Positions 5,180-26,898 of a stretch of 64,000 bases of DNA are shown here, piece by piece. The notes below the pieces were generated by a model. That model did no database searches and was not told the origin of the DNA. It was given only the letters and a program-made list of their open reading frames with translations. This stretch comes from Bdellovibrionales bacterium (GTDB taxonomy: Bacteria; Bdellovibrionota; Bdellovibrionia; Bdellovibrionales; UBA1609), in the NCBI GenBank assembly GCA_050249195.1, contig JBFWQY010000020.1, forward strand, positions 30,081 through 94,080. The letters run 5' to 3'. Position numbers and translations under genes: made by a program. Position 1 is the stretch's first letter, and every line of letters starts with the position of its first letter.

Positions 5180-5256
5180 GGGGCCTTAGCTTAGTTGGTT
5201 AAAGCAGCCGGCTCATAACCGGCGGATCCCAGGTTCAAGTCCTGGAGGCCCTACCA
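5180..5256 (+). tRNA. tRNA with anticodon CAT (elongator Met or lysidine-type Ile2; not initiator)
   Basis: Cloverleaf read by eye: acceptor GGGGCCT/AGGCCCT, D-arm GCTTAGTTGGTTAAAGC, anticodon stem-loop GCCGG-CTCATAA-CCGGC, T-arm CCAGG-TTCAAGT-CCTGG, encoded CCA. The anticodon stem lacks the 3 G-C pairs of an initiator tRNA. Confidence 0.85.
5241..5256 (+). repeat. attL core (tRNA 3' end)
   Basis: CCTGGAGGCCCTACCA, identical to 26883-26898. Confidence 0.7.
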
Positions 5257-5296
5257 GTTCTAACGATTCCAGATACTTACAAAGCGAATTCAGTGA

Positions 5297-5314
5297 TTGG
5301 TCCCGTTTGGTCCC
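5297..5314 (+). repeat. island-internal 18-mer TTGGTCCCGTTTGGTCCC (two TTGGTCCC units 10 bp apart), left arm
   Basis: Exact copy at 26747-26764. Candidate integrase arm-type binding sites. Confidence 0.5.
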
Positions 5315-5349
5315 GGTGCGATTGGGTTCTGCGACGGATCGTTCGGGTT

Positions 5350-6600
5350 TTAGCCGGCCTGCTCATCACTACGAGTTGAACTCACTAACCTCAACCGCTT
5401 CTCTGACTCACGCATTGCCTGTTCCGCACGCTGAGACCGAATCTTCGCATAGTGCTGCGGCATACCCTGGTCTTTCCAACCGCCTAACTGCTGAAGGCCA
5501 AGTAGGTCCTGAGTCTGATCGAGAAACCTAGTTGCCCCGGTGTGTCTGCATACGTGAGTACCACGATGAGGTAATCCAGCACGACTGAAGGCAATGTCGT
5601 ATGCATACTGAATTTGCCGATAGGTTAGGAGGTTTCCCTGATCATGAAAGATCAAGTCACAGCCCTCACGAACGTCTAAAGTAGAAAGAACCGCTTGAAC
5701 CTCCGTCCACAACGGAACCCAGTATGAATCCATTGTAGTCTTTGTACCTACCGCAAGCGACGGCGGTTTTCCTCCTACCCTAGGCCACAAGACATGCTCA
5801 CGAATATGATAGCGACCGTTGGGCAGATCCAAGTTGCTCCATCTCATCGCACATACCTCACTTACGCGTAACACTTGGTAAACCTGCACCACGGCCATTG
5901 CATAGAAGAGCGGGTCTGCTTGCTTGAGAGCGGTCAACCACTTGGTCAACTCGTCATCCGAGAGAACAACTTGTCTCGCGGCTCGCTTCCGTACTTCAGC
6001 CTTAGCAAAATGCTTTCGCTTGATCGGAAATACCAATCTTGAATCGTCATTTTCTTCGATGTGCCAGCGCAACAGGGTACTCAGCGCTTTGAGTTCTTTC
6101 TCGAAAGAGACCCTGGTGTTTCGCCTCTCACTGAGCATTTCTGGCGACTTGAGCCAGTCTATCCAATCCGAAATATTCTGAGAGGTTAGATCATCTACGT
6201 TCATCGTAAATAACGGTTCTAGGAGTTCTAACCTTCTCTCGTACAGGATCACAGTGCCTTCGGCTAGAAACGGGTACCGCTTGGCCTTGAAGTCTCTAAC
6301 AAGGTCAGCAACCGTATAACCGGCATGTTCGCATGTAGCGGTGGTGTTTTGTGTCTCCACCTGAACGTTACGCCGCTCCTTCCACTCACGAGCACCCTGA
6401 AGAGAACTAAAGCACCTCGCCTCTCTCCCGCTTGCTAGCTCTGAAACTCGCCGTGCTTGGTACTGCGGTCCACCAGGAGGATCTTCATAGCGTAACTTAG
6501 CTTCATTCCAGGCCCAGCGCCGTCTAATACCCTTATGACCGGCAACAGGTGCCCAAACAAGAGCACCTTTAAAAACCTTAGGATCAAATTTCTTTGTCAT
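5350..6600 (-). CDS. int: tyrosine recombinase / phage-type integrase
   Basis: 416 aa. The C-terminal catalytic region VCRHTGATRFLD...LGGWKDQGMPQHYAKI has the H-x-x-R and terminal Tyr pattern. The gene is adjacent to the tRNA. Confidence 0.85.
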   Translation of the reverse strand: MTKKFDPKVFKGALVWAPVAGHKGIRRRWAWNEAKLRYEDPPGGPQYQARRVSELASGREARCFSSLQGAREWKERRNVQVETQNTTATCEHAGYTVADLVRDFKAKRYPFLAEGTVILYERRLELLEPLFTMNVDDLTSQNISDWIDWLKSPEMLSERRNTRVSFEKELKALSTLLRWHIEENDDSRLVFPIKRKHFAKAEVRKRAARQVVLSDDELTKWLTALKQADPLFYAMAVVQVYQVLRVSEVCAMRWSNLDLPNGRYHIREHVLWPRVGGKPPSLAVGTKTTMDSYWVPLWTEVQAVLSTLDVREGCDLIFHDQGNLLTYRQIQYAYDIAFSRAGLPHRGTHVCRHTGATRFLDQTQDLLGLQQLGGWKDQGMPQHYAKIRSQRAEQAMRESEKRLRLVSSTRSDEQAG

Positions 6601-6836
6601 GGACGTCTCCTTTTAGAAAGGAACTCCACGACTTCCGACATCTTGAATCGAACGGCGCGACCAATCTTAAAGTACGGTAAGCCCTCATCCTTCATTAATT
6701 TCGAAATGTAGGACGGGCTTAGACTTAGCCGATTAGCCAACTCCGTTCGGTCCACTAAATTGAGAAAGAACTGAGCGTCCACCTTACCACAATGTTCACT
6801 AGGGACTACCTGTCGACTTTTCACAGAGGAACTCAT
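6597..6836 (-). CDS. excisionase-family/AlpA-like helix-turn-helix DNA-binding protein
   Basis: 79 aa with a 4-nt overlap with int. LVDRTELANRLSLSPSYISKLMKDEGLPYFKIGRAVRFKMSEVVEFL matches the MerR-superfamily excisionase HTH pattern. Confidence 0.65.
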   Translation of the reverse strand: MSSSVKSRQVVPSEHCGKVDAQFFLNLVDRTELANRLSLSPSYISKLMKDEGLPYFKIGRAVRFKMSEVVEFLSKRRRP

Positions 6837-7030
6837 CGGCGCTTCCTCTTCCTGGCTCTTGGCTTGCGCTTCTTGCCATTCGCTTTTGTGGCGGCTTTTT
6901 TGGCCTTCGTTCGTGCCCGAATCTCTCCCTCGCCAATCACATGAATCTTGCCGCCCCCGCTTAGGAACTTCTCGAGCTCCTCTTTAATAAACTTGCGAAG
7001 CTCTTTTTTTGAGAACCTTGTCTCTATCAT
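6833..7030 (-). CDS. small Lys/Arg-rich hypothetical protein
   Basis: Track ORF 6833..7057 with an internal Met at 7030. The C-terminus KAKKAATKANGKKRKPRARKRKRR is highly basic. Confidence 0.35.
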   Translation of the reverse strand: MIETRFSKKELRKFIKEELEKFLSGGGKIHVIGEGEIRARTKAKKAATKANGKKRKPRARKRKRR

Positions 7031-7502
7031 TTCTGCCCTCCTGGCATGAATTCCCACTCAATCCTTGAGCGGTTTTGGTGTTTCTAGCTTGAAACTCGAG
7101 TATTTCGTCGGGAATGATCCCATGGCCCCGGTACAAAATGAGCCTACCGATTTGAACCTTGAAGTTCTCCTCATCGAAAGCGCGGAACTCAAACGGCGTG
7201 ATACCTTGCTCTAACATCAACCGCTTGGTCCGACTGAGGGCCTTTAGTGAGGCTTTGGAATCCGACCGAAAGAGCGCGGCATACTTAAGTTTCTGATTCC
7301 AGATCGCGCACACCGTCGGTCCAAACGCTTTAATCCAGGTGTCGGATTTCAATTTGTACTCTCCGTATAGCTTCCCGAACCACAAATAGGCCGGGCTCGG
7401 CTCCTCTCGGAGCTTGGCGGCCCACTCCTGGGCAATGGCGGCTTTTCGTATGAACCTACGAAGCCCCGGCGGAACACCCGGATCGTTTTGATCGGTCATC
7501 AA
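6984..7502 (-). CDS. hypothetical protein (172 aa)
   Basis: Track ORF in the island operon upstream of xis/int. No motif recognised. Confidence 0.45.
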   Translation of the reverse strand: MMTDQNDPGVPPGLRRFIRKAAIAQEWAAKLREEPSPAYLWFGKLYGEYKLKSDTWIKAFGPTVCAIWNQKLKYAALFRSDSKASLKALSRTKRLMLEQGITPFEFRAFDEENFKVQIGRLILYRGHGIIPDEILEFQARNTKTAQGLSGNSCQEGRNDRDKVLKKRASQVY

Positions 7503-7537
7503 CTCCTCCTTGAGTTGTTAAGTCATTTTTAAACCGA

Positions 7538-8584
7538 TTAGAATTCGACAACGTTAAAATACCTCGGCTGAAATGCCTCACCATCGTAACCTTCAAAATT
7601 TAAGGTCCCATCTCCGTTAATAGACTTGATGATCAAACGTTTGCCTTTATCGATCCCGCGATAGCTAAATCCATTATCAATGGCAATCACTTCCATTCCG
7701 GGCTCAAACTCGTAAGTTTCCGTAATCGGTGATTCATCTTTCACGGCTACTTCAAGGCTGTTTCTGGGCTGATTGACGGCTGGTTCACATGGTAAATGGT
7801 TAACGGATAGATGACTCACGGATAGATAGTTAATGAATGAACGGAAATATGAAGAACGATAAATGTCCGACGAATTTACGGACAAATGTTCTAATGAACA
7901 AACGGACCGATGATAAAGGTCTAATAGCTTAGGAATCGATGAAGAGTCTTTCTCATCCAAGTGGAGTGCCCGCGTAAGCAGGGCCTTCACCAATAAGTCA
8001 AAGTGAGGTCTCCCTTCCTTAACCCGTTCCAGGACAAGTCTCTTCTTCCCCTTTTGACTCACTAGAAGAGCTCGGACACAGACGTTCACAAAATCGAGGT
8101 CATTATAGACTTCAAGGTTAGGAAACAGGTCAGACTCATTCACCAACCAGATTCCTGGCCTCCCCTTTCCATGTCCCCCTCCTACTGAGCTAGATTCAGC
8201 CAGAACAATAGTCATCCCGAGTCTGGAACTAAGGCAGTTAATGGCTCCCCTCCACGCCTGACCGGATTGGAGCGCAAGCCCATCCTTGGAAGGTTTCCCT
8301 TTTTTTGTCTTACTTGCTTTTAAGGGATCATCGACCGCCAAGTTTGGATCAGAATTGACAAGATCCTGAGCATCCTTTCGGCTCATCAGGAGCAATCTAC
8401 GATTCGTCACCCCAATTGAATTGCTAATACATGCGACTAACCGTTCAACTGAATCTCTGCTGTTGTAGTAGACCTCCAACATACCCTTGAGCTCCTCCGA
8501 TTGAATCTTAGAAACCTCGATAGGCGGCACCAAACGGTACCGGTCTAAGTCCCGTATCTTTAGAGCTAATTCTGAAAGCTTCAT
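7538..8584 (-). CDS. hypothetical protein (348 aa), in the position usually held by a replication/primase-type island gene
   Basis: Track ORF. No Walker or primase motif seen, so the function is unassigned. Confidence 0.5.
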   Translation of the reverse strand: MKLSELALKIRDLDRYRLVPPIEVSKIQSEELKGMLEVYYNSRDSVERLVACISNSIGVTNRRLLLMSRKDAQDLVNSDPNLAVDDPLKASKTKKGKPSKDGLALQSGQAWRGAINCLSSRLGMTIVLAESSSVGGGHGKGRPGIWLVNESDLFPNLEVYNDLDFVNVCVRALLVSQKGKKRLVLERVKEGRPHFDLLVKALLTRALHLDEKDSSSIPKLLDLYHRSVCSLEHLSVNSSDIYRSSYFRSFINYLSVSHLSVNHLPCEPAVNQPRNSLEVAVKDESPITETYEFEPGMEVIAIDNGFSYRGIDKGKRLIIKSINGDGTLNFEGYDGEAFQPRYFNVVEF

Positions 8585-8934
8585 TACTTCTCCTTCCTGG
8601 AAAGCATTGTTTGTTCATAGATTTTGATTCGTTTTGTAACTGTCGTGTGGGACCGCTTAATACCGACGCCTTTTAGGGCGCCCGAGATTTCACGGCTGGA
8701 GAGACCCTCGGCGTGGAAAGCCCAAATCTGACGGTCTATTTGGGATCGAAATTTATGGGTAGCAAGAAACAGTGTGGCGAGCCGGTAATAATCCGCTCTG
8801 AATGGGTCATAATTTGATGTGATCTTTGATGAGTACGATTTTAGGTCCCCATTTGGATCTTCAATGTCCCTAAAGCCGCTCTCTTGAAGCAGCTTTGCCC
8901 AATGGGCTTTGATTTCAGCAAGACCCTTTTTCAT
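8584..8934 (-). CDS. hypothetical protein with a probable C-terminal HTH
   Basis: 116 aa with a 1-nt overlap with the downstream ORF. The segment LSSREISGALKGVGIKRSHTTVTKRIKIY is HTH-like. Confidence 0.5.
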   Translation of the reverse strand: MKKGLAEIKAHWAKLLQESGFRDIEDPNGDLKSYSSKITSNYDPFRADYYRLATLFLATHKFRSQIDRQIWAFHAEGLSSREISGALKGVGIKRSHTTVTKRIKIYEQTMLSRKEK

Positions 8935-9661
8935 GGGGTATTCATTCCTTTCCCTACACTTCCTACTGGTAAAACCCCTAATTTCGAGATCTCACCGAAG
9001 CTCACAGAGGTGTTTACAGGGACGCCACGCACTCCTGAAGCATTTGGAAGCTAGACCGATTCAGGTGTCCCTCAATCAGTACTACTAAATGGGCTAAATC
9101 TTTGACTTGCCGGTTTCGACTTTTCGGCTGCCGATGCGTGGATCAGGTGATCGGGAGACGTCGAGTGACCGGACCGAATTAGATTGTCGAACTCAGTGTG
9201 TGTAACTACCTGAAATTAGGTGGTCGAAATCAGCGAGGAGCCACTTTTTCGTGTTGAAATCATCGACCCCCTTGTGTGGAGACCTAAGAATTCAAAAAAT
9301 CCCATAGATAGTGCTCTGACGCTGTTGCATTCCTTCTGAAGGAAACCTTTTCGACACGTTTACAGTCCGGACATATGTGAAAGCAACTGCTCCAACATTG
9401 CGATCGAGCCAGAGGTTCAAAAATTCGGTCCCGTTTAGCGTGGGTGATTCCCTCGTGCGGCCATCAGTGCATTTTGATGACGTCGAGACCCTGAAAATTC
9501 ATTCCCGCTCATGCCTAACGAAACGCTTTGCCTCTGGTTCGGTCCTTCTGGACACCTTTTAGGACTCAAAACGAACGTTTAGGGACGTGGAGTCCCAAGA
9601 TTAATCCATAACGTAATCTAATGAATGTAGATGCCCGACTTAAAGTCAAAGGAGGCGGCCG

Positions 9662-10051
9662 ATGGCCACCAAACACATTATCGTCCAAAACACGGAGAGC
9701 CACCCCAAGCCGCTCCGAAGTCATTTGTCAGGACTGTACGGCTCAAACACTTTCGAGACTGGTGATTCCTTTATTGTCTTCTCTCGAAATGATGACGAAG
9801 CATTCATCGGTGATATTTTCAGCCGTTCAGAAACCTTCAATTCGGAAACGCTAGCAGAAATCATCTCAGACTTTGTTACTTATCTTGAGAAAACTGGGTG
9901 CAGCCGGGTGAGTGTGTGTGTCGACGGCCTTAAACCGAGGGCGTTGGAGCTTGTTCACGCAGCCCAAAAGCTAGACTTCATACCTCAAGATCCGTTTAAC
10001 GACTATTTGGTCTTTTTAAAGGAGTTGGAACCCAATGGGCTCTGCAATTAA
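9662..10051 (+). CDS. hypothetical protein (129 aa)
   Basis: Track ORF with the RBS AAAGGAGGCGGCCG before the ATG. No motif recognised. Confidence 0.5.
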   Translation: MATKHIIVQNTESHPKPLRSHLSGLYGSNTFETGDSFIVFSRNDDEAFIGDIFSRSETFNSETLAEIISDFVTYLEKTGCSRVSVCVDGLKPRALELVHAAQKLDFIPQDPFNDYLVFLKELEPNGLCN

Positions 10052-10925
10052 AAGCGTCACCAATGCAGTCGGAAGCGCATTCGGTTTTGGCGGAGGCAAC
10101 ACAGTCCGCTTCGATCCGTCTAGATTTGCATACAACCCGGACGCTAAGTCTTTTGGTCCGATTAACCAGGATATCGAAGGTGCGATCCAAGGAGTTCGCC
10201 AAGATAATCGTAATGCGGTCTTAGGCATTGATCAGCGAACATATCGCGATAAGCAGACCGCTCTCGCTGAAGCTTTAGAGGCTCAGGCCAGGGGAGAGGG
10301 GCCTTCCCTAGCTCAAAACCAACTGAGAAAGGCCACGGAACGAAACCTACAAGACCAAATGGCACTAGCCGCATCCGCTCGAGGAAACGTCAATCCGGCA
10401 TTAATGCAACGGCAACTGATGCAGAACCAAGCGGCCACTAATCAAGCTGCGGCTCAACAATCAGCGGACTTACGATTCCAAGAGTTGATGGCGGCGAGGC
10501 AAATGCTTGGTGATCTTGCAACGAATGCCCGGAATCAAGACGCCGCCGCTCAACAGTACGCAACCGAGGCTGAGAGAGGAATGCTGGATCAGATTGCCGG
10601 TATCCGAGATTCGAATCGTGCAGCGGCTATGAACCTTGAATCGCTTCGCTCCAACAACGCTTTAGGAGTAGGTAACCAAGCCGTTCAGGACACTATCAAT
10701 CGACGTGACACTAGAACTCAGATGCATGGAGCTCTGATAAGCGGGATCGCAAGTGGAGCTTCGGCCGGCCTGGGAGGTCCTGCGGGTGGAGCCAAAGGTG
10801 GAGCAACTCCTAAGTATGACGGCGGACTGATTCCGGGTCGAGCCAAAGTTCCTGGAGACTCTCCCGCTAACGACACTGTTCCGGCTATGCTCAGTCCCGA
10901 TGAAGTGGTTCTCCCTAGGTCTGTT
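10035..10925 (+). pseudogene. phage-like Gln/Ala/Asn-rich structural protein (pilot/tape-measure-like), 5' part, interrupted by IS66
   Basis: The N-terminus MGSAIKSVTNAVGSAFGFGGG, long Q/A/N-rich helical stretches and the motif GDSPANDTVPAMLSPDEVVLP are typical of phage tail or internal proteins. The reading frame continues exactly at 13432 once the IS and one TSD copy are removed. Confidence 0.6.
10918..10925 (+). repeat. IS66 target-site duplication, left copy (GGTCTGTT)
   Basis: Identical 8-mer at 13424-13431, directly abutting the IS termini. Confidence 0.8.
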
Positions 10926-10984
10926 GTAACCCCTGCGTAATTCGCGCCTAGTGTTTGTGGCGCCGGTCGGTCAAGCTGGCCGAC

Positions 10985-11404
10985 ATGTTGGATACTGAAT
11001 CTGTCATTTCCGAAATTCTTCAAATCAAAGCACAATGGGTAGCCGAAGTCGGCGACAAGCCTCGGCGTCTTTGGCCAAAGGCCATCAAAGAGCGCGTTTT
11101 AGCACTTGTCGACTCCGGCATCAGGCTTCGCCAGATCGCCGATCGCACCGGTGTCCCCTATGAGACCGTCTGCCAGTGGAAATTTCAGCGCGAGCATAAG
11201 CAAAGGGGCTTTCACCAGGTGCCCGTGGTTCAATCCTCGAAGGAGGCAATTACAAATGCAGGCACGGTGGCCGCGCCGGCAGATGAAAGTGCACAGCCCG
11301 AGGGGCCGATCGGGATCCGCACTCCCGATGGTTACGTGATCAAGGTGTGGTCGGAGAGGTCTGCGGCACTGGTGATTACGTCTTTGCGCCAAGGAGGATG
11401 CTGA
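10985..11404 (+). CDS. tnpA: IS66 accessory protein TnpA (HTH)
   Basis: Track ORF 10955..11404, first ORF of the IS. The HTH-like segment is SGIRLRQIADRTGVPYETVCQWK. Confidence 0.7.
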   Translation: MLDTESVISEILQIKAQWVAEVGDKPRRLWPKAIKERVLALVDSGIRLRQIADRTGVPYETVCQWKFQREHKQRGFHQVPVVQSSKEAITNAGTVAAPADESAQPEGPIGIRTPDGYVIKVWSERSAALVITSLRQGGC

Positions 11405-11862
11405 TGTTCTTGGATAGAAAAGGACTTAGGGTCTTCGTGTACCGGGAGCCGATCGACATGCGCTGTGGCTTCGAGCGCCTGCACAGCTTTTGCGTTCATC
11501 ACATGAAAGCCGAGATGAACCAGGGACACCTATATGTGTTCTTCGGCAAGAACCGGCGGCGCTTGAAGTGCCTGGTGTACGACGGAACCGGTCTCGTTCT
11601 GCTCTCAAAGCGCATGGAGCGCGGCCAGTTCATGTCGCACGCGAAACTTCTCGGTCGCGCCGAGATCACGATCCAGGAGCTTCAGTTGATCTTGCACGGG
11701 AGCGTGATCAAAAAGCCCGTCGTCGACCGGAGCATGCCTGCCAGTGCGCCTTCGACGACGCATTGGGAAGGTGTTGATTTACCTGTTGGGTCTACGCCAT
11801 CTTGCAAACCTGCATGGGGAGCGCCACAAAATCCGCAGACCAGCTTCGCATCGAGAGACTGA
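11398..11862 (+). CDS. tnpB: IS66 accessory protein TnpB (Orf2)
   Basis: RVFVYREPIDMRCGFERLHSFCV...LYVFFGKNRRRLKCLVYDGTGLVLLSKRMERGQF is the IS66 Orf2 signature. The ATG at 11398 overlaps the tnpA stop. Confidence 0.8.
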   Translation: MLMFLDRKGLRVFVYREPIDMRCGFERLHSFCVHHMKAEMNQGHLYVFFGKNRRRLKCLVYDGTGLVLLSKRMERGQFMSHAKLLGRAEITIQELQLILHGSVIKKPVVDRSMPASAPSTTHWEGVDLPVGSTPSCKPAWGAPQNPQTSFASRD

Positions 11863-13412
11863 TCAAGTCCGAGACCAATCCGGAGATTTTGCAGATCCTA
11901 CTTCTTGAAACGGCAGAGGAGAACAAGCGGCTCAAAGCTCGGCTTGAGGCGCTAGAGAACGCGAAAGCGGCAGAAGCTCAAGTTACCATGGCGCTCGAGG
12001 AGCGCCTGAGGCTGCTTCGAGGCGCCATGTTCGGCCGCTCGCGCGAAGAGCGTGTGGAAGCGAGCGACCGAGCAAGGGATAAAAGCCAGGAGGCAGCCCT
12101 GCTGTTCTCGAAGGCGGCGTTCCCTGCGCCACAGACTCGGGACGATGATCAGAAGAACAAGGCAAAGGGTAAGGAACTCGATGGCGTGCCAGTTGAGCAC
12201 CGCATGACGCCCGAGGATCTGACCAAGGAAAGCGAGCTTCGCGGGCTTGCCAATCCATCAGGTGAGCAATGGAGGGACACTGGGCTCTACGATGAGTCCG
12301 TGAAGGTTCAGATCATCGAGCGAAAATACGTTCGCGAGCTGCACAGACGTTACAAGTACAAGCTCAAAGAAGAATACCTGCCGGTCGACGCGGAAAAGGA
12401 GGTCATCATCACGGCACCGGGGCCTGAAGAGCTTCTTGCGGGCATGAATTACACGACGGAGTTCGTGGGCAGCGTTGCCGCGGACAAGTACGTCTCCCAC
12501 ATCCCCCTTGAGCGTCAGACCCGGCAGATGGAAAGCTTGGGGTTAAAAGGGATCAAAACATCGACTCTCTCGAGGATGTGCTTTTTGGCCGCGGTCTCCT
12601 TAGAACCTCTAGCAGAGCGGATCAGAAAGGAGCTGATCCAAACAGACCTTGCGTTACACTTGGACGAGACTCCATGGAAAATACAAAACAGCAAAGAGCG
12701 CGACGGCTACATGTGGGTGATGTCGAATCGGTACGGTTCGTACTACTTCTTCAAGCCGACACGTTCAGGTCAAGTTCTTAAAGAAAAACTTGGCGACTAC
12801 TCAGGACCTGCTCTGACCGACGGCTATGGCGGATACTCGGTTCTTGAAGAACTTGGCATTAAGCAGGGACTTTGCTGGGCTCATGCACGCCGGGAGTTTT
12901 TCCCTCTTGAAAGCCATGATCCCTCGGTGAAGCCAATACTCGACCTCATCGATGAGCTGTTCGCCATCGAGCGCGAAGCGGAGACGTTTGAGCAACTGGC
13001 GGAGCTAAGAAAAGAGCGAAGTCGCCCAATCACCGAAAAGCTTCGTGAGCTTCTCATCGAGGAGTTCCCAAAATCCCGGCCGGGATCAGCCAAACGCAAG
13101 GCCATCGAGTACACGATGAAGCGCTGGCAAGGTCTAACGTTCTTCCTGGAGGACACGCGCCTGGCCCTCTCGAACAACGAAGCCGAGCGCACGATCAGGC
13201 ATGCGGTAATGGGCAGGAAGAACTATTATGGCTCGGGCAACCATGAGGGCGCGAAGACCGCAGCCATCCTCTTTACGATTATCGAATCAGCTAAGAAGAA
13301 CGATATTGACCCAAGATCATTCCTGCTCATGAGCCTCGCCCGCGCTGCGCGCGGCGAGGATCTTGAAACGCCTCTGGCCTATGCTCGCCGCACTCGTCAA
13401 CTCGTGAGTTAA
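11802..13412 (+). CDS. IS66-family transposase
   Basis: 536 aa with an N-terminal coiled coil and the signatures LHLDETPWKI, GYMWV and CWAHARREF, typical of IS66 TnpC. Confidence 0.85.
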   Translation: MQTCMGSATKSADQLRIERLIKSETNPEILQILLLETAEENKRLKARLEALENAKAAEAQVTMALEERLRLLRGAMFGRSREERVEASDRARDKSQEAALLFSKAAFPAPQTRDDDQKNKAKGKELDGVPVEHRMTPEDLTKESELRGLANPSGEQWRDTGLYDESVKVQIIERKYVRELHRRYKYKLKEEYLPVDAEKEVIITAPGPEELLAGMNYTTEFVGSVAADKYVSHIPLERQTRQMESLGLKGIKTSTLSRMCFLAAVSLEPLAERIRKELIQTDLALHLDETPWKIQNSKERDGYMWVMSNRYGSYYFFKPTRSGQVLKEKLGDYSGPALTDGYGGYSVLEELGIKQGLCWAHARREFFPLESHDPSVKPILDLIDELFAIEREAETFEQLAELRKERSRPITEKLRELLIEEFPKSRPGSAKRKAIEYTMKRWQGLTFFLEDTRLALSNNEAERTIRHAVMGRKNYYGSGNHEGAKTAAILFTIIESAKKNDIDPRSFLLMSLARAARGEDLETPLAYARRTRQLVS

Positions 13413-13423
13413 GCAGGGGTTAC

Positions 13424-13431
13424 GGTCTGTT
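13424..13431 (+). repeat. IS66 target-site duplication, right copy (GGTCTGTT)
   Basis: Identical to 10918-10925. Confidence 0.8.
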
Positions 13432-13629
13432 GTGAAAAGTGAAGACCCTTATAAGGCCACCAAGGAATTCCTTGAGGCATTGGATCGCAAGTATCCGGGA
13501 AAAATTGGGACTTCGAAGAAACAATCTAAACGGACCAATGAAGCGACAGGGTTCGGGGCCGTACTTGCCGCTCAAGCTGAATTGAATAATCGGTTGAAGG
13601 AACTGGAAGGTAAGAGAGGCAGAAAATAA
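13432..13629 (+). pseudogene. 3' part of the IS66-interrupted phage-like gene
   Basis: In frame with 10035..10925 after removal of the IS and one TSD copy (…LPRSV-VKSEDPYKATKEF…GKRGRK*). Confidence 0.6.
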
Positions 13630-15951: not shown

Positions 15952-16218
15952 ATGGCTGGACGTAAGAAGAATGCTCGAACCGCCTCAAAGAAGGTCCAAC
16001 AGAACAAGCTGTTTCCCATTCCGTGGGAAGAGGTCCTACAGGGGACTCTGTATGGGCCAACAATTGAGCGCGAACTACGTGCGAAAGAAGGGCTGAGTGA
16101 CGATCTGAGTATCCTCCCCCCGCCTGGGACCAAGGCGTTTGACCGATTGACTAATAAACGACAACGAGAAGCTTTGAAGTGGTTCAAAAAGCAATCTGCC
16201 CGTTCAAAGCGCTCGTGA
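15952..16218 (+). CDS. small basic protein, paralog family member 1 (C-type motif)
   Basis: 88 aa with the RBS AAGGAGG. The C-terminus AFDRLTNKRQREALKWFKKQSARSKRS is shared with the C-terminus of 16666..17193. Confidence 0.6.
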   Translation: MAGRKKNARTASKKVQQNKLFPIPWEEVLQGTLYGPTIERELRAKEGLSDDLSILPPPGTKAFDRLTNKRQREALKWFKKQSARSKRS

Positions 16219-16258
16219 TTGAGAACTACCAACCTAAACCTAAAGAGGAGGAGAAATA

Positions 16259-16627
16259 ATGGCACGTAAGGAGAAATCTCCGAACAAGCAAAGAGGGGGC
16301 CGCCCGAGCCTCGAAGAGGAGGAAGCCATTAGATCCATGTTTGACGGGCTTCTCAGAAGAAGCATGAGCCGGAGACTTAAATTCCTCCCAGCAAAGAAGG
16401 CTAAGGTGTTCAAAACACTCTCGGTAGAGGAGCAATATCTGGCTCTAGAGTCCTTCATCAAAGACGCTCAAGAGTACTTCATCCTGACGGCCGATCTATA
16501 CAGAGATAAGGACGACAAAACTCTCGCGAGGGAGATCCGTGAGGCCTACGCTGAATACCGAGAACAACGCCGCCAAATAATTCATTTCGGCGCAGGTTAT
16601 CGAAGAATATCGACCTGTAACAATTAA
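16259..16627 (+). CDS. small basic protein, paralog family member 2 (N-type domain)
   Basis: 122 aa with the RBS GAGGAGG. VFKTLSVEEQYLALESFIKDAQEY..LYRDKDDKTLAREIREAYAEYREQRRQIIHF aligns with the N-terminal half of 16666..17193. Confidence 0.6.
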   Translation: MARKEKSPNKQRGGRPSLEEEEAIRSMFDGLLRRSMSRRLKFLPAKKAKVFKTLSVEEQYLALESFIKDAQEYFILTADLYRDKDDKTLAREIREAYAEYREQRRQIIHFGAGYRRISTCNN

Positions 16628-16665
16628 CCGGTCATGTATTTGACCCATTAACTAAGGAGGATGTC

Positions 16666-17193
16666 ATGTCAGTAGCACGTAAGCAGACGAGATCTCAGAA
16701 ACTAGAGTTAAAGAAGCTTTCCTATAGTGTTAGTCGCAGATTTTCTCGCTTCTTTAGGTTCCATCGCAATACCGATCCCAAGGTATTTAAGGCGCTCTCG
16801 TCACAAGACCAAGAAGACACTTTAGCGTTCTTCAGAGAACAATGGCTCGAATCGGTGGTCCTCACCGGCATCTATAACAGAGATCTTGACGATAAGACGT
16901 TTGCTGCAAAGATGCGCAAGGCGCTGGATGATTATCAGAAGGCTGCCAGACAAATAGATCGGTTCGATATGAAGTATTCCCGGAAGTCGGAGTCAATTCC
17001 AACCACTTCAGAAGAAGTCCGGCGAATTGAGGCAACGATAGTTGAGAGCATGACGGAAAATATAGCCTACTACCCGGCACCAGACTCCGATGCATTCAAT
17101 CAAATGTCAGAGCAAGAACAACAAGCCGCTTTGGAATGGTTTGAGAAGGACGCCGCCCGTTCAAAGCGGTGTGGACTTCCGGTTATCAAGTAG
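16666..17193 (+). CDS. small basic protein, paralog family member 3 (N-type plus C-type domains)
   Basis: 175 aa with the RBS AAGGAGG. It contains both VFKALSSQDQEDTLAFFREQ..YNRDLDDKTFAAKMRKALDDYQKAARQIDRF and AFNQMSEQEQQAALEWFEKDAARSKRC. Confidence 0.6.
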   Translation: MSVARKQTRSQKLELKKLSYSVSRRFSRFFRFHRNTDPKVFKALSSQDQEDTLAFFREQWLESVVLTGIYNRDLDDKTFAAKMRKALDDYQKAARQIDRFDMKYSRKSESIPTTSEEVRRIEATIVESMTENIAYYPAPDSDAFNQMSEQEQQAALEWFEKDAARSKRCGLPVIK

Positions 17194-17237
17194 GAAGCGC
17201 TGAGTGATCCAAACCTAAACTAACAAGGAGAAGAGTA

Positions 17238-17474
17238 ATGACTGTACGTGAAAAGATGTCTTCAACCGCTCGACAAAAACGACGAGAATGGCCAGAAAAA
17301 CTTTTGCAGCTAGATAGAGCGATCAAATTCAAGACTTATCCAGTACCAAAGTCGGAACCGTTTAAGAAGTTAACGCCCGAAGAGCAACGGATCGCTCAAG
17401 AATGGTATGACTGGGTGGTTACTACCATAAGAAGTAGGCGAGCTACTCGCAATAGCAAACATGGTGACAATTAA
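17238..17474 (+). CDS. small basic protein, paralog family member 4 (divergent C-type)
   Basis: 78 aa with the RBS AAGGAGAAG. PFKKLTPEEQRIAQEWYDW is a divergent C-type motif. The 3' end overlaps the recombinase start by 14 nt. Confidence 0.55.
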   Translation: MTVREKMSSTARQKRREWPEKLLQLDRAIKFKTYPVPKSEPFKKLTPEEQRIAQEWYDWVVTTIRSRRATRNSKHGDN

Positions 17475-18069
17475 GACCAAGCGGCCTCGAGTGGTCTTGT
17501 ACTGCAGAGTCTCCACTCTAGACCAGTCAAACGAGGCTCAAAAACGAGAACTTCTGGCTTACTGCTCTAGCCGGGGTTGGGCGGTTACTGCCATTTACGA
17601 AGACCAAAAAAGTGGCACAACCACAAACCGCCCTGCCTTTCAAAAACTGATGAAAGACGCTCACGCGAAGACATTCGATCGGGTCGTAGTCTTCAAAATC
17701 GATCGCATGGCAAGGTCCCTTAGGGATTTAATAGTGACACTTCAGGAGTTGATTGATCTCGATGTAGAGTTTGTCTCCATTAGGGACCATATTGACCTGA
17801 CTACAAGTGCTGGACGTCTCATGTTCAACATACTGGGAGCGTTCGGTCAGTTCGAAGCAGAGTTAATCAGGGAGCGGACGGTCTCGGGACTCAGAAACGC
17901 CAAGGCAAAGGGTAAACGACTGGGCAGACCTCCAACCATCGACGCCAAAGCTGTAATCGCTCGACGGAAGAGAGGGGCAAAGATTCGCGATATTGCCGCC
18001 TACTACGGCGTCTCTGATTCAGCGATTAAGAACATAATAGCCCGAACAAGAAAAAAGGGAACCCGGTAG
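17461..18069 (+). CDS. serine recombinase (resolvase/invertase family)
   Basis: 202 aa. The catalytic motif is VVLYCRVSTLDQSNEAQ, followed by a resolvase core and the C-terminal HTH KIRDIAAYYGVSDSAIKNIIAR. Confidence 0.85.
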   Translation: MVTIKTKRPRVVLYCRVSTLDQSNEAQKRELLAYCSSRGWAVTAIYEDQKSGTTTNRPAFQKLMKDAHAKTFDRVVVFKIDRMARSLRDLIVTLQELIDLDVEFVSIRDHIDLTTSAGRLMFNILGAFGQFEAELIRERTVSGLRNAKAKGKRLGRPPTIDAKAVIARRKRGAKIRDIAAYYGVSDSAIKNIIARTRKKGTR

Positions 18070-20228: not shown

Positions 20229-20517
20229 ATCGACAGGGAACATGTTTGGTTGTCTGGTATCTTATCCGGTTGATAGGTCCGACAGGCTCGGCAAAATCTG
20301 ACTAAACGACAAGATTTCCAATCGAGGTTGGGTTCAAGATTTTTTGAATCCAACTTCAGCCTTAGTTGAACCAAAGTGACGCAATATTAGCATTAATTAG
20401 AAATAGTTTATTGTGTTCCGGTAAAAACTGAGGATGAGCACTTTTGATCTTATTCATTCGGACAACAAGCCGATAAGAAACTTAGCGCATCTTGCGCAGA
20501 GAGGGAGGCCTGTCCCG

Positions 20518-21027: not shown

Positions 21028-21075
21028 GAGCATTGTGTGTGCCAAAGTAGGCCTCGGACGGCTGCACTTTTCCGC

Positions 21076-22479: not shown

Positions 22480-22519
22480 TTCCACCCTCCTTATTGAAAG
22501 ATGCCGTTCTTGGTCGCTC

Positions 22520-22900
22520 CTACGAACGAATGTATTTCAACGCTGCCTGCTCTAGGGTCAGCATGAACCCACAGATCGAGGACGCCGCTAGACCAGCAAA
22601 GACGTACTCGATTAAGCCAGGATCCCTGTCTAGCTGCCTTGTAAATGCCCATATAAGAAAAATCCACAGCCCCAGTCGAGTTACTAGAGTATAAACGATA
22701 GAAGTAACCACAATTGAGACAATAACACTCAGGCCGGTCATGAAATCGGATCCAGAGTCAGCCTGTTGAGCGGCAGCCCGTGAGCTGGAGGGTAATTTGC
22801 TAAGCGACTCGTTGTCAGTCACAAAAGAGAATCCACAGTCACAGGCCGCTGCGCTAGCCGGGTTCGTAAGCCTGCACCTAGGACATACCTTGCTTGACAT
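22520..22900 (-). CDS. zinc-ribbon membrane protein
   Basis: 126 aa. The N-terminal CPRCRLTNPASAAACDCG motif (CxxC...CxC) is followed by two or three hydrophobic helices. Confidence 0.55.
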   Translation of the reverse strand: MSSKVCPRCRLTNPASAAACDCGFSFVTDNESLSKLPSSSRAAAQQADSGSDFMTGLSVIVSIVVTSIVYTLVTRLGLWIFLIWAFTRQLDRDPGLIEYVFAGLAASSICGFMLTLEQAALKYIRS

Positions 22901-23024
22901 AACTTACCCCCCAAGGTCTCCTAATTAATAGTGTTACGTACACTTCGAACTAATTCACTTCGTGCCGCATCAAATAATGTCAGTAGATCTTCCACCTAAC
23001 TAAATATTGATTATAGTATTTTAA

Positions 23025-24734
23025 ATGGAAAATTCCCTGTCAACACTCATGGAGCAGATTAGATATGGCGCACCTGAAGTCGAATTAGCGCCAGTTTACA
23101 CTGACCTTGCAAAGAGGCAGATCGCCTTCAAGCGTATGGATATAGATTCAGCGCTCACTCTCCGGCTACTGGAAGATGTGTCAGACGTAAGATTCCAAAC
23201 AAGTACATTTCGAGGTGAAGTAAACCTTATTGGGAACGTACGAGTCAGCAAACTGAAATTTACTTCATGCGTGTTCGGACCCTATTCGAAAACTGTTCTC
23301 TCTCATGACTTCTGCGAGGACTTCGTTTTTGAAAGATGTACCTTTGAGCCTGGCTGCCATTTAGAATTCATTGGTCAGAACACCTCCGTCACTGGCTCAA
23401 GCATTAGATTCTTAGACTGCCCTCCCTCCGCGCACCTCACAAAAGTCACGATTACCGGAATCTTTCTCAAGGAGGTTAAGTGGACTCAGGTCCCGGTAAA
23501 GATCAAAGAAATCTTCCTAACGTGTTCAACGTTATGGTTTAATCCACTTCAGCTAGTAACTACGCATAGTGTGGAGGAGAGATTTGCTCTAACGGATGTT
23601 GTTGTTAGGGGAGCGATATCACAGATTGAAATGGGGCGAGTGACCGCTCCTATCACAATTGACGGATTGGTACTCGAGAAGCAGATCGACTTCAATGGGG
23701 ATTTCAGTGCGCGGTTGAAGGTTCGTAGACTTGAATTTGAAGATGGGGAATCTGGGACCTTACGGATCGTCGGCACATTTCGTGTTTCAGCCGTCTTTGA
23801 GAAAGTCGTCGCTAAAACGATTGAAATTCACCAAGTGACGATAACTGAGCCAAAAAGTACGTTGAATATTGAGCACTGCAAGGCTGACCAAGTGATTATT
23901 TCAAGACCACAAGGCCGAGGCTCCCTCACGGTTAAACATCTCGTTTGTGACACTCTGGCGTTCCCTTCTAATACAGGGGGAGTATTGACACCAACACTGA
24001 TCTTACATCATTGCGCAATTACTGGCTATCTTGCATTCCGACAGACACACTGGATTTCCGATATAGAGATACGTGATTCATCGGTGGAAATTCTTGACTG
24101 TGACTACGCAATTTTAGACGCTCATTTTTCTGCTTTAAACTGTGTATTTTTTAAACCACCATCCTTTTCAAACGCAAAAGTAAGCTCATTCTTTGTGTTC
24201 GAGCATTGTCAGTTTAAAGACGTAGGTGGCGGTACTAGCCACTATTACAGCAGGCTTAAAGCGCTCTCCAAAGAAAAGGACAACGAGCGGCAAGAAAGGC
24301 TGTTCGGCTCGTTAGAGTTGCAGTCCTATACATTGTCGGCACCGCGCTACTCCATGGAGTATGTAGTTGGTCGTCTTTATTGGATCGTGAGCGACTTCGG
24401 TCGGTCGATTAGTAGACCGCTCTGGTTTGTATTAGGGCAGTCAATCCTGGTTTTTGGACTCATCAACTATTGGAATACGCTTGAGTACATAGTTGATAGC
24501 CCAGCCTCGGCAGACGTTTGGTTTCAAACAGCGAAGGATTGGTCAAGAGAGCAACGAGCTATCTTCGAGACCCTCGCACACTCGTTGGGCCCGCTTGGAT
24601 TGTTTAGGGCGAATGATATCTTTGCCACAAAATCGTTTTTGGCGAACGCGATCTTGCTGGCACACGCCGTTCTATGCTCTATTTATTGGTTCCTCCTCTT
24701 ACTAGGCATTCGAAAGAGGTTTAAAGTTGAGTAA
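23025..24734 (+). CDS. large repeat-rich (beta-helix-like) protein with a C-terminal transmembrane domain
   Basis: 569 aa. About 400 aa of degenerate short repeats (FTSCVF, FERCTF, FLDCPP, LHHCAI, FEHCQF) are followed by the hydrophobic helices LWFVLGQSILVFGLINYW and ANAILLAHAVLCSIYWFLLLLGI. Confidence 0.6.
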   Translation: MENSLSTLMEQIRYGAPEVELAPVYTDLAKRQIAFKRMDIDSALTLRLLEDVSDVRFQTSTFRGEVNLIGNVRVSKLKFTSCVFGPYSKTVLSHDFCEDFVFERCTFEPGCHLEFIGQNTSVTGSSIRFLDCPPSAHLTKVTITGIFLKEVKWTQVPVKIKEIFLTCSTLWFNPLQLVTTHSVEERFALTDVVVRGAISQIEMGRVTAPITIDGLVLEKQIDFNGDFSARLKVRRLEFEDGESGTLRIVGTFRVSAVFEKVVAKTIEIHQVTITEPKSTLNIEHCKADQVIISRPQGRGSLTVKHLVCDTLAFPSNTGGVLTPTLILHHCAITGYLAFRQTHWISDIEIRDSSVEILDCDYAILDAHFSALNCVFFKPPSFSNAKVSSFFVFEHCQFKDVGGGTSHYYSRLKALSKEKDNERQERLFGSLELQSYTLSAPRYSMEYVVGRLYWIVSDFGRSISRPLWFVLGQSILVFGLINYWNTLEYIVDSPASADVWFQTAKDWSREQRAIFETLAHSLGPLGLFRANDIFATKSFLANAILLAHAVLCSIYWFLLLLGIRKRFKVE

Positions 24735-24853
24735 ACGTCATTCACAGTCTCAAGTAAGAGGAACTCTCCTGCCCGCGTAGAGCGCAATTCCAGACTGGAA
24801 GACATAAGGGGTTTCCCAACCAGGTCGTTAACAGTATTAGATTTTGCAAGAGA

Positions 24854-25960
24854 TTACCCGCTTGCCTCTGAGTCCATACTATCGAGCAGGCGCAAACTAG
24901 CACGACTTCTCCCTGATGAGCCCCCACCGTCCAAAGTAGAAATTACCAGGCCAAATAAATAGGAATTTAGTTCGTTGGAGTAGATATGTAGCTCCTTAGC
25001 AATTTGCGAACGGGAAATACCTTCCTTCCTCAAGTCCGAAAGAACGATCTGTAAGATCTTTGATGTCTCGTGGACTCCTCCCAAGGGCTCTTTCTTTCTA
25101 AAGCCTCGTTCAGATATTTGAATACAAAGCTGCCGGTAATGCCAATCGGAGGTTATCTTCAATGTATGTATCCTGTGATTGAGTGCAGCCACAGACACGT
25201 TCCATAACCTTTTCATTTTAATCAGAGTCTCCAGCGTGATGAAGCTAGGAGCAACTGACAACACGCTCTCCTTCGGCATAAGAAAGGCAGATGCAAACCG
25301 GTCCGCTTCGGTTTCAACCTCTCGACCCTGAATTTGGCCGTGGCGGTGAAGAACTAAATGCGCAAGTTCATGTGCAGCATCAAATCGGCTTCTCTCGGAC
25401 GACTTACTCGTGTTCAGAAAGATAAATGGAGTCTCCGTCCTCCAAAAACAGAAGGCATCTAGTCTCTGAGAATCTTTGGGAAGTGAGAAAATTCGCACCC
25501 CATTTGATTCAAGTTGATGCACGAGATTCTTGATCGCCGCATTCCCTAGGCCCCACTCAATACGAACAGCTTCGGCGGCAGCTTCCGGCTCTTCTCCACG
25601 CAAATCAGGAATTCTGGGAGCGGGCAGATCGTAGCGGCTCTCTATCCAGTCATTCAACGATGTCGCAATTACGCTCGCCGAAAGAGATGCATCCCTGTAC
25701 TTTGCAGTCAGATTGGAGAATGCGCGAAAGCTAACACCGTCAAGACATGGCTCATCCAGGCTTTCAGCAAAGAAGAACTCGACAGGGAAATCTAGCTCTT
25801 TGGCTATCTTGGATAAAATTTCTGTAGACGGATCAATCCCCTCTTCTCGCTCGTAATCAACAACGGTGCGAGGGCAGACCCCAATTAAACTGGCAAGCGT
25901 CTTCTTATTCAGCCCTCGTCGGCGTCGTGCAAGTGATAACCGATGTGGATTAAACTTCAT
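24854..25960 (-). CDS. XRE-family HTH fused to an ImmA/IrrE-type (M78) metallopeptidase domain
   Basis: 368 aa. The N-terminal HTH is LNKKTLASLIGVCPRTVVDYEREE. The HExxH motif is in FDAAHELAHLVLH, followed by the downstream EADRFASAFLMP. Confidence 0.8.
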   Translation of the reverse strand: MKFNPHRLSLARRRRGLNKKTLASLIGVCPRTVVDYEREEGIDPSTEILSKIAKELDFPVEFFFAESLDEPCLDGVSFRAFSNLTAKYRDASLSASVIATSLNDWIESRYDLPAPRIPDLRGEEPEAAAEAVRIEWGLGNAAIKNLVHQLESNGVRIFSLPKDSQRLDAFCFWRTETPFIFLNTSKSSERSRFDAAHELAHLVLHRHGQIQGREVETEADRFASAFLMPKESVLSVAPSFITLETLIKMKRLWNVSVAALNHRIHTLKITSDWHYRQLCIQISERGFRKKEPLGGVHETSKILQIVLSDLRKEGISRSQIAKELHIYSNELNSYLFGLVISTLDGGGSSGRSRASLRLLDSMDSEASG

Positions 25961-25969
25961 AACCCCACG

Positions 25970-26611
25970 CTAGCTTTTCCTCCTGACGTCAACAATTGGA
26001 TCGTCAGTAAACTGGACTTTGTTCGGCGGTGGCAAATCGTCACTGAGATTAACCACAGGAAGTATAATTCTTTCGCTGAAGTCTTCAACGTGACCATTGT
26101 CGCCGATAAAGGTGGGCATACTTACCTCGGCTCTAACCAAATCACCATCACTATAGGTGACCAAAACCCACATCTGGAACTTTCTGGCTTCCAGCGAAGT
26201 GGGCTCAATTCCCAGTTCCCTGTCCGACCAGGCAAGTTGCTGCCTATTGTTATAGACCAACTGAACCGTCTGGCTGCCTCTCTTATACCGTGATCGCGGG
26301 TCTTTACTTGAATTACCGGTACACTCATCACCTGATAATGCGCCGATTGCAACTTTGCCATCAGGGCTGATAACCTTTGGGAGACCACCGCTCTCGTCGT
26401 AGATCCAACCAGCGGGTGAGAGCATGTCTCGAAGTGCGGCTATCTTCTCTCCCCAACATACGATTCCCGCAACTATTCTAGGATGTAGACCGCTGAACTG
26501 ACGCCTCCGAAGTTCGCTCCTTCGGATCGTTTCACTGAGAATCTCAATCGACAGACCGAGCTTATCTAGTTGCGTTCGTATTGCGTTTGTTTTCTTGTGA
26601 ACTAGGGCCAA
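25970..26611 (-). CDS. hypothetical protein (213 aa), upstream partner of the XRE-ImmA gene
   Basis: Track ORF with a 9-nt gap to the downstream gene. No motif recognised. Confidence 0.55.
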   Translation of the reverse strand: MALVHKKTNAIRTQLDKLGLSIEILSETIRRSELRRRQFSGLHPRIVAGIVCWGEKIAALRDMLSPAGWIYDESGGLPKVISPDGKVAIGALSGDECTGNSSKDPRSRYKRGSQTVQLVYNNRQQLAWSDRELGIEPTSLEARKFQMWVLVTYSDGDLVRAEVSMPTFIGDNGHVEDFSERIILPVVNLSDDLPPPNKVQFTDDPIVDVRRKS

Positions 26612-26746
26612 ACAATTCCCCCTTCCTATTTCTTTCCCTCAATTGTGGTCTAAAAATAGGAAGTGTCAATCGGGATGCCCCGCACCATTTATTTCGCAAT
26701 ACTCCTCAGCCTTCGGCTTTCACATGCGACTCCGAGAAGAGTAGAG

Positions 26747-26764
26747 TTGGTCCCGTTTGGTCCC
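26747..26764 (+). repeat. island-internal 18-mer TTGGTCCCGTTTGGTCCC, right arm
   Basis: Exact copy of 5297-5314, in the same orientation and inside the island. Confidence 0.5.
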
Positions 26765-26812
26765 CCTCAGTGTAGAAATCGGTGAAAGTCAGTGGATAAC
26801 AGTGGAAGTCAT

Positions 26813-26898
26813 GGAGTCCTAAGTTATTGGTTAAACAAGAATTGCAAAATAGTTACTGCTACTTGGAAGGGCCTAGCCAATCCCTGGAGGCCCTACCA
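26813..26898 (+). pseudogene. degenerate tRNA-like sequence ending in the attR core
   Basis: GGAGTCCTAAGTTATTGGTTAAACAAG resembles the tRNA 5' half GGGGCCTTAGCTTAGTTGGTTAAAGCAG, and the 3' end is identical. The middle has no foldable anticodon arm. Confidence 0.4.
26883..26898 (+). repeat. attR core (direct repeat of the tRNA 3' end)
   Basis: CCTGGAGGCCCTACCA, identical to 5241-5256. Confidence 0.7.

Follow-up and report, generated by a model that had tools for sequence, protein, structure and literature searches.

How did a block of more than 21 kb of DNA come to lie directly behind a tRNA(CAT) gene in a Bdellovibrionales bacterium, and could it still leave? The locus is part of a stretch of 64,000 nucleotides (nt) of contig JBFWQY010000020.1 (assembly GCA_050249195.1), hereafter called the window. 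An initial annotation had described an island integrated in the tRNA gene, bounded by exact 16-bp attachment (att) repeats, with a tyrosine integrase (Int) gene and an excisionase-type (Xis) helix-turn-helix (HTH) gene abutting the tRNA. These features were all recovered, and the element is very probably a genuine, site-specifically integrated genomic island of the lambda-Int type. The insertion is precise, the corresponding site is empty in relatives, and the att architecture is conserved across a family of related elements. The features at the two ends of the island are listed here in window coordinates.

5180..5256, + strand: target tRNA(CAT) gene (ARAGORN; Rfam 69.8 bits)
5241..5256, + strand: attL core, the 16-bp direct repeat CCTGGAGGCCCTACCA, corresponding to tRNA positions 61-76
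5297..5314, + strand: P' arm doublet, TTGGTCCC-gt-TTGGTCCC in 10-bp phase, a candidate integrase arm-type site
5350..6600, - strand: tyrosine integrase of 416 amino acids (aa; PF00589, 5.6e-17), 94 nt from the tRNA end
6597..6836, - strand: excisionase-type HTH_17 protein of 79 aa (PF12728, 4.4e-9), with a 4-bp overlap with the int start
26747..26764, + strand: P arm doublet, identical to the P' doublet, ending 118 nt before the attR core
26781..26833, + strand: conserved P-arm blocks, namely three GTGRA units in 10-bp phase (GGTGAAA at 26781, CAGTGGA at 26790, CAGTGGA at 26800) and GTTATTGGTTA at 26823
26883..26898, + strand: attR core CCTGGAGGCCCTACCA, the displaced original tRNA 3' fragment
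26899..26965, + strand: native right flank, 83-85% identical to the sequence directly after the same tRNA in two sister species (G016 and G015)

The target is the sole ARAGORN tRNA within the window. It is a non-initiator tRNA, either elongator Met or Ile2; three CAT tRNAs are present in the genome, with the initiator on contig C30. The gene is intact, its 3'-terminal 16 nt being supplied by the element. The 16-mer CCTGGAGGCCCTACCA has two copies in the window (0/100 shuffles reached 2 matches) and no further copy in the 4.94-Mb genome. A degenerate copy of the tRNA 3' end (23-mer, up to 3 mismatches) was searched for elsewhere in the window, and none was found. The exact 18-mer that had been noticed inside both ends, TTGGTCCCGTTTGGTCCC, is likewise present in two copies on the same strand (5297-5314 and 26747-26764) and is unique to these positions in the 4.94-Mb genome. 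The sequences surrounding the two 18-mers are unrelated, and they are therefore not part of a longer duplication.

From repeat to repeat, the island measures 21,642 bp, or ~19.1 kb without an IS66-family insertion sequence (IS) that arrived later. Two checks had been proposed with the initial annotation, one on base composition and one on related genomes that lack the island, and both bear it out. The GC content of the island without IS66 is 0.475 versus a genome mean of 0.530 (standard deviation 0.027, 4-kb windows), and its tetranucleotide distance falls in the 95th-98th percentile over 14-26 kb. The island is thus compositionally foreign to the genome.

The comparison with relatives fixes the boundaries. 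In the two sister species, G016 and G015, the same tRNA gene runs directly into AATTTGAAGACCGCTT..., which is the sequence after attR in the window. A contiguous stretch of G016 maps by blastn to both ends of the island: its nt 4-80 match window 5180-5256, its nt 65-142 match 26883-26961 (83.5% identity), and the 16 nt common to both mappings are the direct repeat. G015 gives the same blastn pattern, with 85% identity to the post-attR flank. The joined flanks of the window can be aligned end to end with G016 and G015 (alignment A5). As the site is uninterrupted in both species, 21,642 bp have been inserted exactly at the tRNA 3' end. The whole genome of G015 is without any integrase of this family, and G016 contains a single 28%-identical match on a contig other than that of the tRNA. 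The locus therefore shows every feature in the Islander definition of a tRNA island: an intact tRNA with a displaced 3' repeat, an adjacent tyrosine integrase, and an empty site in relatives.

To the left of the tRNA, gene order is conserved throughout the genus. The sequence after the tRNA differs in almost every species, which marks this tRNA as an integration hotspot. In G004, for instance, the same tRNA is occupied by a related element that encodes a 61% identical Int, an Xis and a homologue of a 172-aa island protein. Directly left of the tRNA, the window contains a HAD hydrolase gene (4395-5138) that is absent from that position in relatives. In the near-identical metagenome-assembled genome (MAG) GCA_050184215.1 (L039 1512-2169), this gene is split into two open reading frames (ORFs), with a length difference of ~38 bp.

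On the other side, only 67 bp of native right flank remain. From 26966, 67 bp past attR, an ISL3-family element follows (26966-29070), into which an IS110-family element has been inserted (~27012-28668). Contig C42 contains an ISL3 copy without interruption, and 126-bp IS110 ends are found at several contig ends, where they probably cause assembly breaks. To the right of this IS nest, up to ~34 kb, lie gene fragments including a lectin-like ORF. A 105-aa ORF at 32073-32390 matches just the last 60 positions of the TraB/PrgY/GumN family and is a C-terminal gene fragment. A second or tandem island in the low-GC stretch 26.9-34 kb was considered and rejected, as the stretch consists of the IS nest and gene fragments and contains no further tRNA fragment.

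The integrated arrangement is reproduced by an independent assembly. The Logan contig SRR27751816_422059 (21,789 bp) is 100% identical to window 5207-26995, through both junctions, so the assembly is not chimeric there. Its right end is the start of the repeated IS at 26966. On the left, it begins 30 nt ahead of base 5237, a position at which the tRNA departs from those of relatives (k = 31). At this base, the T-loop reads TTCAAGT here versus TTCGAGT in all same-genus relatives. The Logan start exactly 30 nt before 5237 suggests a co-occurring related tRNA variant in the sample.

The integrase is a complete tyrosine recombinase by sequence. In an alignment of 39 sequences (alignment A3), R245, K287, H349, R352 and Y384 occur in every sequence, and W375 in at least 90%. 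The AlphaFold2 model has a mean predicted local distance difference test (pLDDT) score of 87.7. In its predicted layout, an N-terminal domain of five strands and a helix (residues 1-77) is joined by a disordered linker (78-92) to the core-binding domain, which the catalytic domain follows. Within the full model, the N-domain mostly reaches a pLDDT of 85-95. The best Foldseek matches of the integrase are Tn1549 Int (E 2.7e-12) and full-length lambda Int (E 4.9e-11). According to the model, the N-domain would be a separate conserved domain in the right place, one that is not demonstrably of the lambda/Tn916 arm-binding fold.

A profile search with the integrase yielded 43 homologues, and every source-named one originates from Bdellovibrionota, including one from B. 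bacteriovorus 109J with 36% identity. No relative of the integrase was found in IMG/VR, only weak partial integrase matches were obtained in the phage collection, and searches of the phage and plasmid collections with the island DNA returned no match. No account of this integrase family or of its attP design turned up in literature searches; both the clade and the design appear undescribed. Seven related elements were compared with the island. They are listed with Int identity, target and P' doublet.

G004: Int 61%; same tRNA-Met; TTGTCCCC-aa-TTGTCCCC
G003 (L021/L030): Int 60%; tRNA-Val(TAC); CTGTCCCC-at-TTGTCCCC
L032: Int 58%; tRNA-Val(TAC); CTGTCCCC-ga-TTGTCTCC
L035/L043: Int 56%; tRNA-Met; CTGTCCCC-gt-TTGTCCCC (L035)
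L036: Int 52%; tRNA-Val(CAC); CAGTCCCC-at-TTGTCCCC
L031: Int 43%; no tRNA found nearby; TTGTCTCC-at-TTGTATCC
L037 (B. bacteriovorus AP029059.1, 2635019-2656257): Int 36%; another tRNA-Met; TTGCGAAC-aa-ATGCGAAC

An Xis homologue (48-80% identity) is encoded directly upstream of int in all seven elements, and four of the seven possess a counterpart of the small serine recombinase of the island (32-44% identity). The remaining gene content is unrelated, and the shared backbone consists of the recombination genes only. Two relatives are complete, namely L043 with 11,415 bp and a 16-bp repeat, and L036 with ~10.95 kb and a 19-bp repeat. The core repeat of L043, CCCTCAGCCCCTACCA, covers the same 16 tRNA positions as that of the window. 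The far ends of the islands in G003, G004 and L032 lie beyond their contigs, and no convincing att repeat was found for L031. The targets of the family thus comprise tRNA-Met(CAT), tRNA-Val(TAC) and tRNA-Val(CAC). The integrases of G003, L032 and L036, which are 52-60% identical, use tRNA-Val instead of tRNA-Met(CAT) with nearly the same arm motif (TGTCCCC). Core specificity has therefore switched, and the arm sites have been retained. The cargo of L037 includes an OLD/AAA_15-type protein. PADLOC gave marginal matches only in the cargo of the related islands, and a "defence-island family" is accordingly not claimed.

The initial annotation had regarded the 18-mers as plausible arm-type sites, and the family lends this idea comparative support. 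In the window, the P' doublet is positioned 40 nt past the CCA end, and 35 nt separate it from the stop codon of int. A phased 8-mer doublet lies between the tRNA end and the int stop codon in all seven related elements, and both arms can be read in the three complete islands. In L043, the P' doublet follows the tRNA end at 52 nt and the P doublet (CTGTCCCCATTCTGTCCCC) precedes the attR core by 119 nt; in L036, the corresponding distances are 51 nt and 115 nt (TTCGTCCCCATTTTGTCCCC). L037, which has the most divergent Int, carries a different doublet motif at the equivalent position, a hint that arm motif and integrase change in concert.

The P arm is conserved as well. The 150 bp upstream of the attR core align across the window, L043 and L036 despite unrelated neighbouring genes (alignment A4), with local alignment scores of 42-47 vs 9.5 +/- 1.6 for shuffles (z ~20). 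The next 150 bp inward show no similarity among the three islands. In addition to the blocks at 26781-26833, the doublet itself and TCGGTGAAA are conserved. The doublets are most likely Int arm-type sites and are treated here as candidates for them, and the phased GTGRA block is a candidate excisionase or accessory-factor site. Because the geometry is that of a lambda-type attP, with arms ~120 nt upstream and 40-50 nt downstream of the core and phased repeats between the P sites and the core, the doublets are tentatively assigned to Int and the phased block to Xis.

A mechanism can be proposed on this basis, in which we infer from the sequence which protein binds which repeat. The lambda-type tyrosine integrase would recombine attP with the 3' end of the non-initiator tRNA(CAT) gene, with the exchange located inside the terminal 16 nt (tRNA positions 61-76) or at their 5' border. 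The identical 3' end supplied by the element would keep the tRNA whole at attL, and the original 16 nt would be displaced to attR. In the reconstituted attP, the core would be flanked by two identical TTGGTCCC doublets, one ending 118 nt upstream and one starting 40 nt downstream, which may be bound by the separate N-terminal domain of Int (residues 1-77, followed by the disordered linker). The HTH_17 excisionase would dock on the three phased GTGRA units between the P doublet and the core and thereby direct excision. IS66 would have been inserted into a tail-fibre-like gene after the arrival of the island.

Several of these features are known from lambda (P1, P2, P'1-P'3; X1-X2) and from the Int proteins of Tn916/Tn1549. 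The core-binding and catalytic domains are shared, as is an N-domain on a predicted flexible linker. Further features in common with lambda are direct-repeat candidate arm sites on both sides of the core (~120 nt before it and 40-50 nt after it), phased repeats located between the core and the P sites, and a small excisionase gene directly upstream of int. In contrast to lambda, the island N-domain is predicted as five strands and a helix without a match to solved arm-binding domains, each arm has only two units, which are identical, and the excisionase is an HTH_17 protein (MerR/AlpA-like) rather than lambda Xis.

Between the recombination genes and the P arm lies the cargo, comprising the following genes.

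6984..8934, - strand: three orphan genes, encoding 172, 348 and 116 aa and co-oriented with xis-int; no family matches
10035..10925, + strand: 5' part of a tail-fibre-like gene (301-aa ORF), truncated by IS66
10926..13423, + strand: IS66-family element of 2498 bp with three ORFs open; 8-bp target duplication GGTCTGTT at 10918-10925 and 13424-13431
13432..13629, + strand: displaced 3' end of the tail-fibre-like Peptidase_S74 (S74) gene, 65 codons, 81-83% identical to the C-termini of phage homologues
14952..15817, - strand: lipoprotein-like protein of 216 aa (lipobox by eye) and Arc/ribbon-helix-helix (RHH)-like regulator of 72 aa (phrog_582 Arc-like repressor, 1e-4)
15952..17474, + strand: four paralogous small basic proteins (88, 122, 175 and 78 aa; pairwise BLASTP E 2e-13 to 5e-4); no family-library match
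17461..18069, + strand: small serine recombinase of the resolvase/invertase type, 202 aa (PF00239, 1.4e-44)
22520..24734, divergent pair: zinc-ribbon membrane protein of 126 aa (- strand) and 569-aa repeat protein with a C-terminal membrane segment (+ strand); weak UPF0547 zinc-ribbon match only, no PHROG or PADLOC match
24854..25960, - strand: RmrA, an XRE-HTH fused to an ImmA/M78 metalloprotease, 368 aa, motif HELAH (PADLOC 1.6e-145; PF06114 1.8e-27; PF01381 2.7e-8)
25970..26611, - strand: RmrT, a predicted RosmerTA toxin of 213 aa (PADLOC 1.7e-50), 9 nt upstream of rmrA on the same strand

The best-defined cargo is located next to the P arm. The initial annotation had listed an XRE-ImmA pair at this place and proposed a scan for defence systems. 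Both domains are present; they form one fused protein rather than two, and the partner of this protein is RmrT. The PADLOC scan identifies the two genes as RosmerTA, a toxin-antitoxin defence system in which RmrA is the predicted antitoxin. RmrA proteins are antitoxins with a protease domain that are paired with varied toxins, and phage defence has been shown for other members (PMC10440598). The pair in the island shares with them the XRE HTH and the ImmA/M78 HExxH motif of RmrA, an rmrT gene directly upstream, and carriage on a mobile element. It differs in its host, a predatory Bdellovibrionota bacterium. RosmerTA anti-phage systems were reportedly described by Millman et al. in 2022. To our knowledge, no biochemical function has been assigned to the RmrT class.

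The initial annotation also described a phage-like structural gene killed by IS66, and this gene can now be specified. Intact homologues of the split gene (49-61% identity) carry a C-terminal Peptidase_S74 domain (PF13884, endosialidase chaperone), a domain typical of tail fibres. They are situated between large structural genes of SU10-like podophage contigs, which also encode the SU10 capsid, adaptor, collar, holin and endolysin. Beyond the IS, 65 codons correspond to the C-termini of the homologues, and the S74 gene has therefore been split recently. The intruder shows the hallmarks of the IS66 family, with TnpA, TnpB and TnpC ORFs (PF01527/PF13384, PF05717 and PF03050), terminal inverted repeats starting with GTAA (10926-10946 and 13403-13423) and the 8-bp duplication. 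The assembly contains one copy of it. Apart from the S74 gene, no gene of the island matches the SU10-like phage contigs. A 129-aa ORF at 9662-10051 overlaps the start of the S74 gene and occupies the position of a small GNAT-like gene in related phage contigs; its similarity to the phage protein is marginal (E 0.04-0.09; 23% over 84 aa at E 0.09). Downstream of the split gene, a 47-nt direct repeat with 81% identity, CCCCTCCCC..CAGAATGC.GTTTTAAAAACTC.GAC, at 13643-13689 and 14603-14649 brackets ~960 bp of apparently non-coding DNA and is not repeated elsewhere in the genome. Outside the window, contig C10 (~69.7-73.3 kb) contains a second region resembling the S74 tail-fibre-like protein and another protein of the SU10-like phage contigs, which may represent a prophage or a tail-like cluster.

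The rest of the cargo is mostly orphan, as had been stated, with no match in Pfam, PHROG, NCBIfam or PADLOC for most genes. Of the three orphans beside xis, the one with 172 aa shows 39-43% identity to the product of a G004 island gene, and a weak HTH is present at the C-terminus of the 116-aa protein. For the 348-aa protein, a set of 5.8e9 proteins contained no homologue, and a full HMMER search against 1.84e9 representatives returned only its own fragment and one weak match. Two ORFs in the cargo are lipoprotein-like, with the lipobox read by eye. The proposed four-member family of small proteins consists of true paralogues according to the BLASTP values above, and the serine recombinase was correctly recognised. 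A scan of the intergenic region 8935-9660 for iterons, promoters and terminators gave nothing above background.

Searches of the island ORFs with Pfam, PHROGs, NCBIfam and PADLOC revealed no capsid, terminase, portal, relaxase, coupling protein, primase or replicase. With regard to prophages, a search of Pfam and PHROGs for capsid, portal, terminase, tail and lysis genes left the tail-fibre-like S74 gene as the sole phage-type gene. With regard to integrative conjugative or mobilisable elements (ICE/IME), no island ORF has a Pfam or NCBIfam match to a relaxase, coupling protein or type IV secretion component. Satellite genes for a primase/replicase or for capsid or packaging redirection were not detected either, divergent versions being possible. 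The lack of detectable capsid, terminase, relaxase and replicase genes indicates that the island is neither a prophage nor an ICE.

Can the island still excise? Present-day competence is somewhat favoured, because int and xis are intact, the two cores and the two arm doublets are identical copy to copy, and the P-arm blocks stand at the family consensus. According to the best-surviving alternative, the integration is real and the element is an immobile, fixed relic whose exact repeats reflect recent arrival. This account is doubtful, and it nevertheless deserves serious consideration. It would fit the landing of IS66 in the cargo, the ISL3/IS110 nest 67 bp past attR and the lack of detected transfer or replication genes, and the independent assembly shows the integrated form alone. 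It is less compatible with a recombination module in which all catalytic residues are conserved and both the repeats and the P arm are preserved as just described; IS66 lies in the cargo, outside this module.

Further points weigh against the proposal of a lambda-type mobile island. The Logan contig crosses both junctions without a branch, and attB and attP forms are at best rare in the SRR27751816 sample. No replication, packaging or conjugation genes are recognisable, and transfer between cells must therefore rely on something else. All genomes compared are MAGs or metagenome contigs, and both ends are available for three family members only, namely the window, L043 and L036. When the N-domain of Int was modelled alone (pLDDT 75), Foldseek returned no significant match in the Protein Data Bank (best E 1.2), the arm-binding domains of lambda and Tn916 Int included, and a sequence profile of the domain found no solved relative. 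We infer its arm-binding role from position only.

The last of these points also bears on the doublets. Instead of arm sites, the 18-mers could be operators for Xis, for the RHH or HTH regulators, or for a nucleoid or other protein, and an Int N-domain without demonstrable similarity to known arm-binding domains is in line with such a function. This interpretation is unlikely. The doublets occur at lambda-like distances on both arms in three elements, and they persist even though the cargo and its regulators all differ, with Int and Xis alone being shared. Moreover, in L037, whose Int diverges most (36% identity), the motif has changed to TGCGAAC.

The initial annotation had further called the island satellite-like. 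As a phage satellite, it would be packaged and transferred with the aid of a helper phage that infects Bdellovibrio-like bacteria. Its layout resembles that of P4-like satellites and phage-inducible chromosomal islands (PICI): small size, int with an AlpA/Xis-like gene at one terminus, and defence cargo at the opposite one. A podophage-derived tail-fibre-like gene is on board, and family members measure 11-22 kb. However, neither primase/replicase and capsid-remodelling genes nor a terminase small subunit or packaging gene is found in Pfam, PHROGs or NCBIfam, the int family is without a relative in IMG/VR, the island DNA is unmatched in the phage collection, and only the recombination genes are common to the relatives. 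Nothing specific speaks for a satellite, and this origin is very unlikely. A broader version of the idea goes beyond the single element. In this version, the int-xis-attP module would be the hallmark of a so far undescribed family of minimal cargo islands (11-22 kb), found here only in Bdellovibrionota, with an arm-binding N-domain whose fold is new among such domains, without replication or conjugation genes of their own and with satellite-like transfer between predators by helper phages, and the S74 gene and the serine recombinase would be part of this lifestyle; such a combination is speculative and quite unlikely. A decayed prophage that has lost its structural and lysis modules is highly improbable: the S74 tail-fibre-like gene, the Arc-like repressor and the terminal int and xis genes would suit it, but no capsid, portal, terminase, tail or lysis genes were found with Pfam or PHROGs, complete 11-kb relatives are also without them, and the relatives of the S74 gene sit in phages that share nothing else with the island.

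Among known elements, the lambda-type island described here is closest to those of the Islander database, which collects tRNA-gene genomic islands moved by tyrosine integrases (PMC4383910). Integration at the tRNA 3' end, regeneration of the tRNA by the element, a displaced fragment marking the far end, int beside the tRNA, atypical composition and an empty site in relatives are all shared with such islands. The differences concern the integrase clade, which is restricted here to Bdellovibrionota without a close phage, plasmid or IMG/VR relative, and the use of three different tRNAs by close paralogues. Sublocation classes for tRNA-gene integration were reportedly defined by Williams in 2002. 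The tycheposons of Prochlorococcus are cargo-carrying, tRNA-integrating islands of 10-20 kb with a tyrosine recombinase at one end. By description only, they share with the island the small size, the terminal tyrosine recombinase, the variable cargo and the competition for tRNA hotspots; they differ in that no primase/helicase replication module was detected in the island.

The mechanism, the tRNA target and the defence cargo are standard for genomic islands. The lambda paradigm is followed, and the understanding of such elements is unchanged. The mobile elements and anti-phage defences of predatory Bdellovibrio-like bacteria are, on the other hand, little studied. Here, an island is fully delimited with an empty-site control, and the attP core, the candidate arm sites and the probable excisionase sites can be read from three-way conservation. 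Together, attP and the int-xis module would be a ready starting point for trying out a compact site-specific integration tool in Bdellovibrio genetics. For the predators themselves, the island indicates that RosmerTA-type defences travel on such elements.

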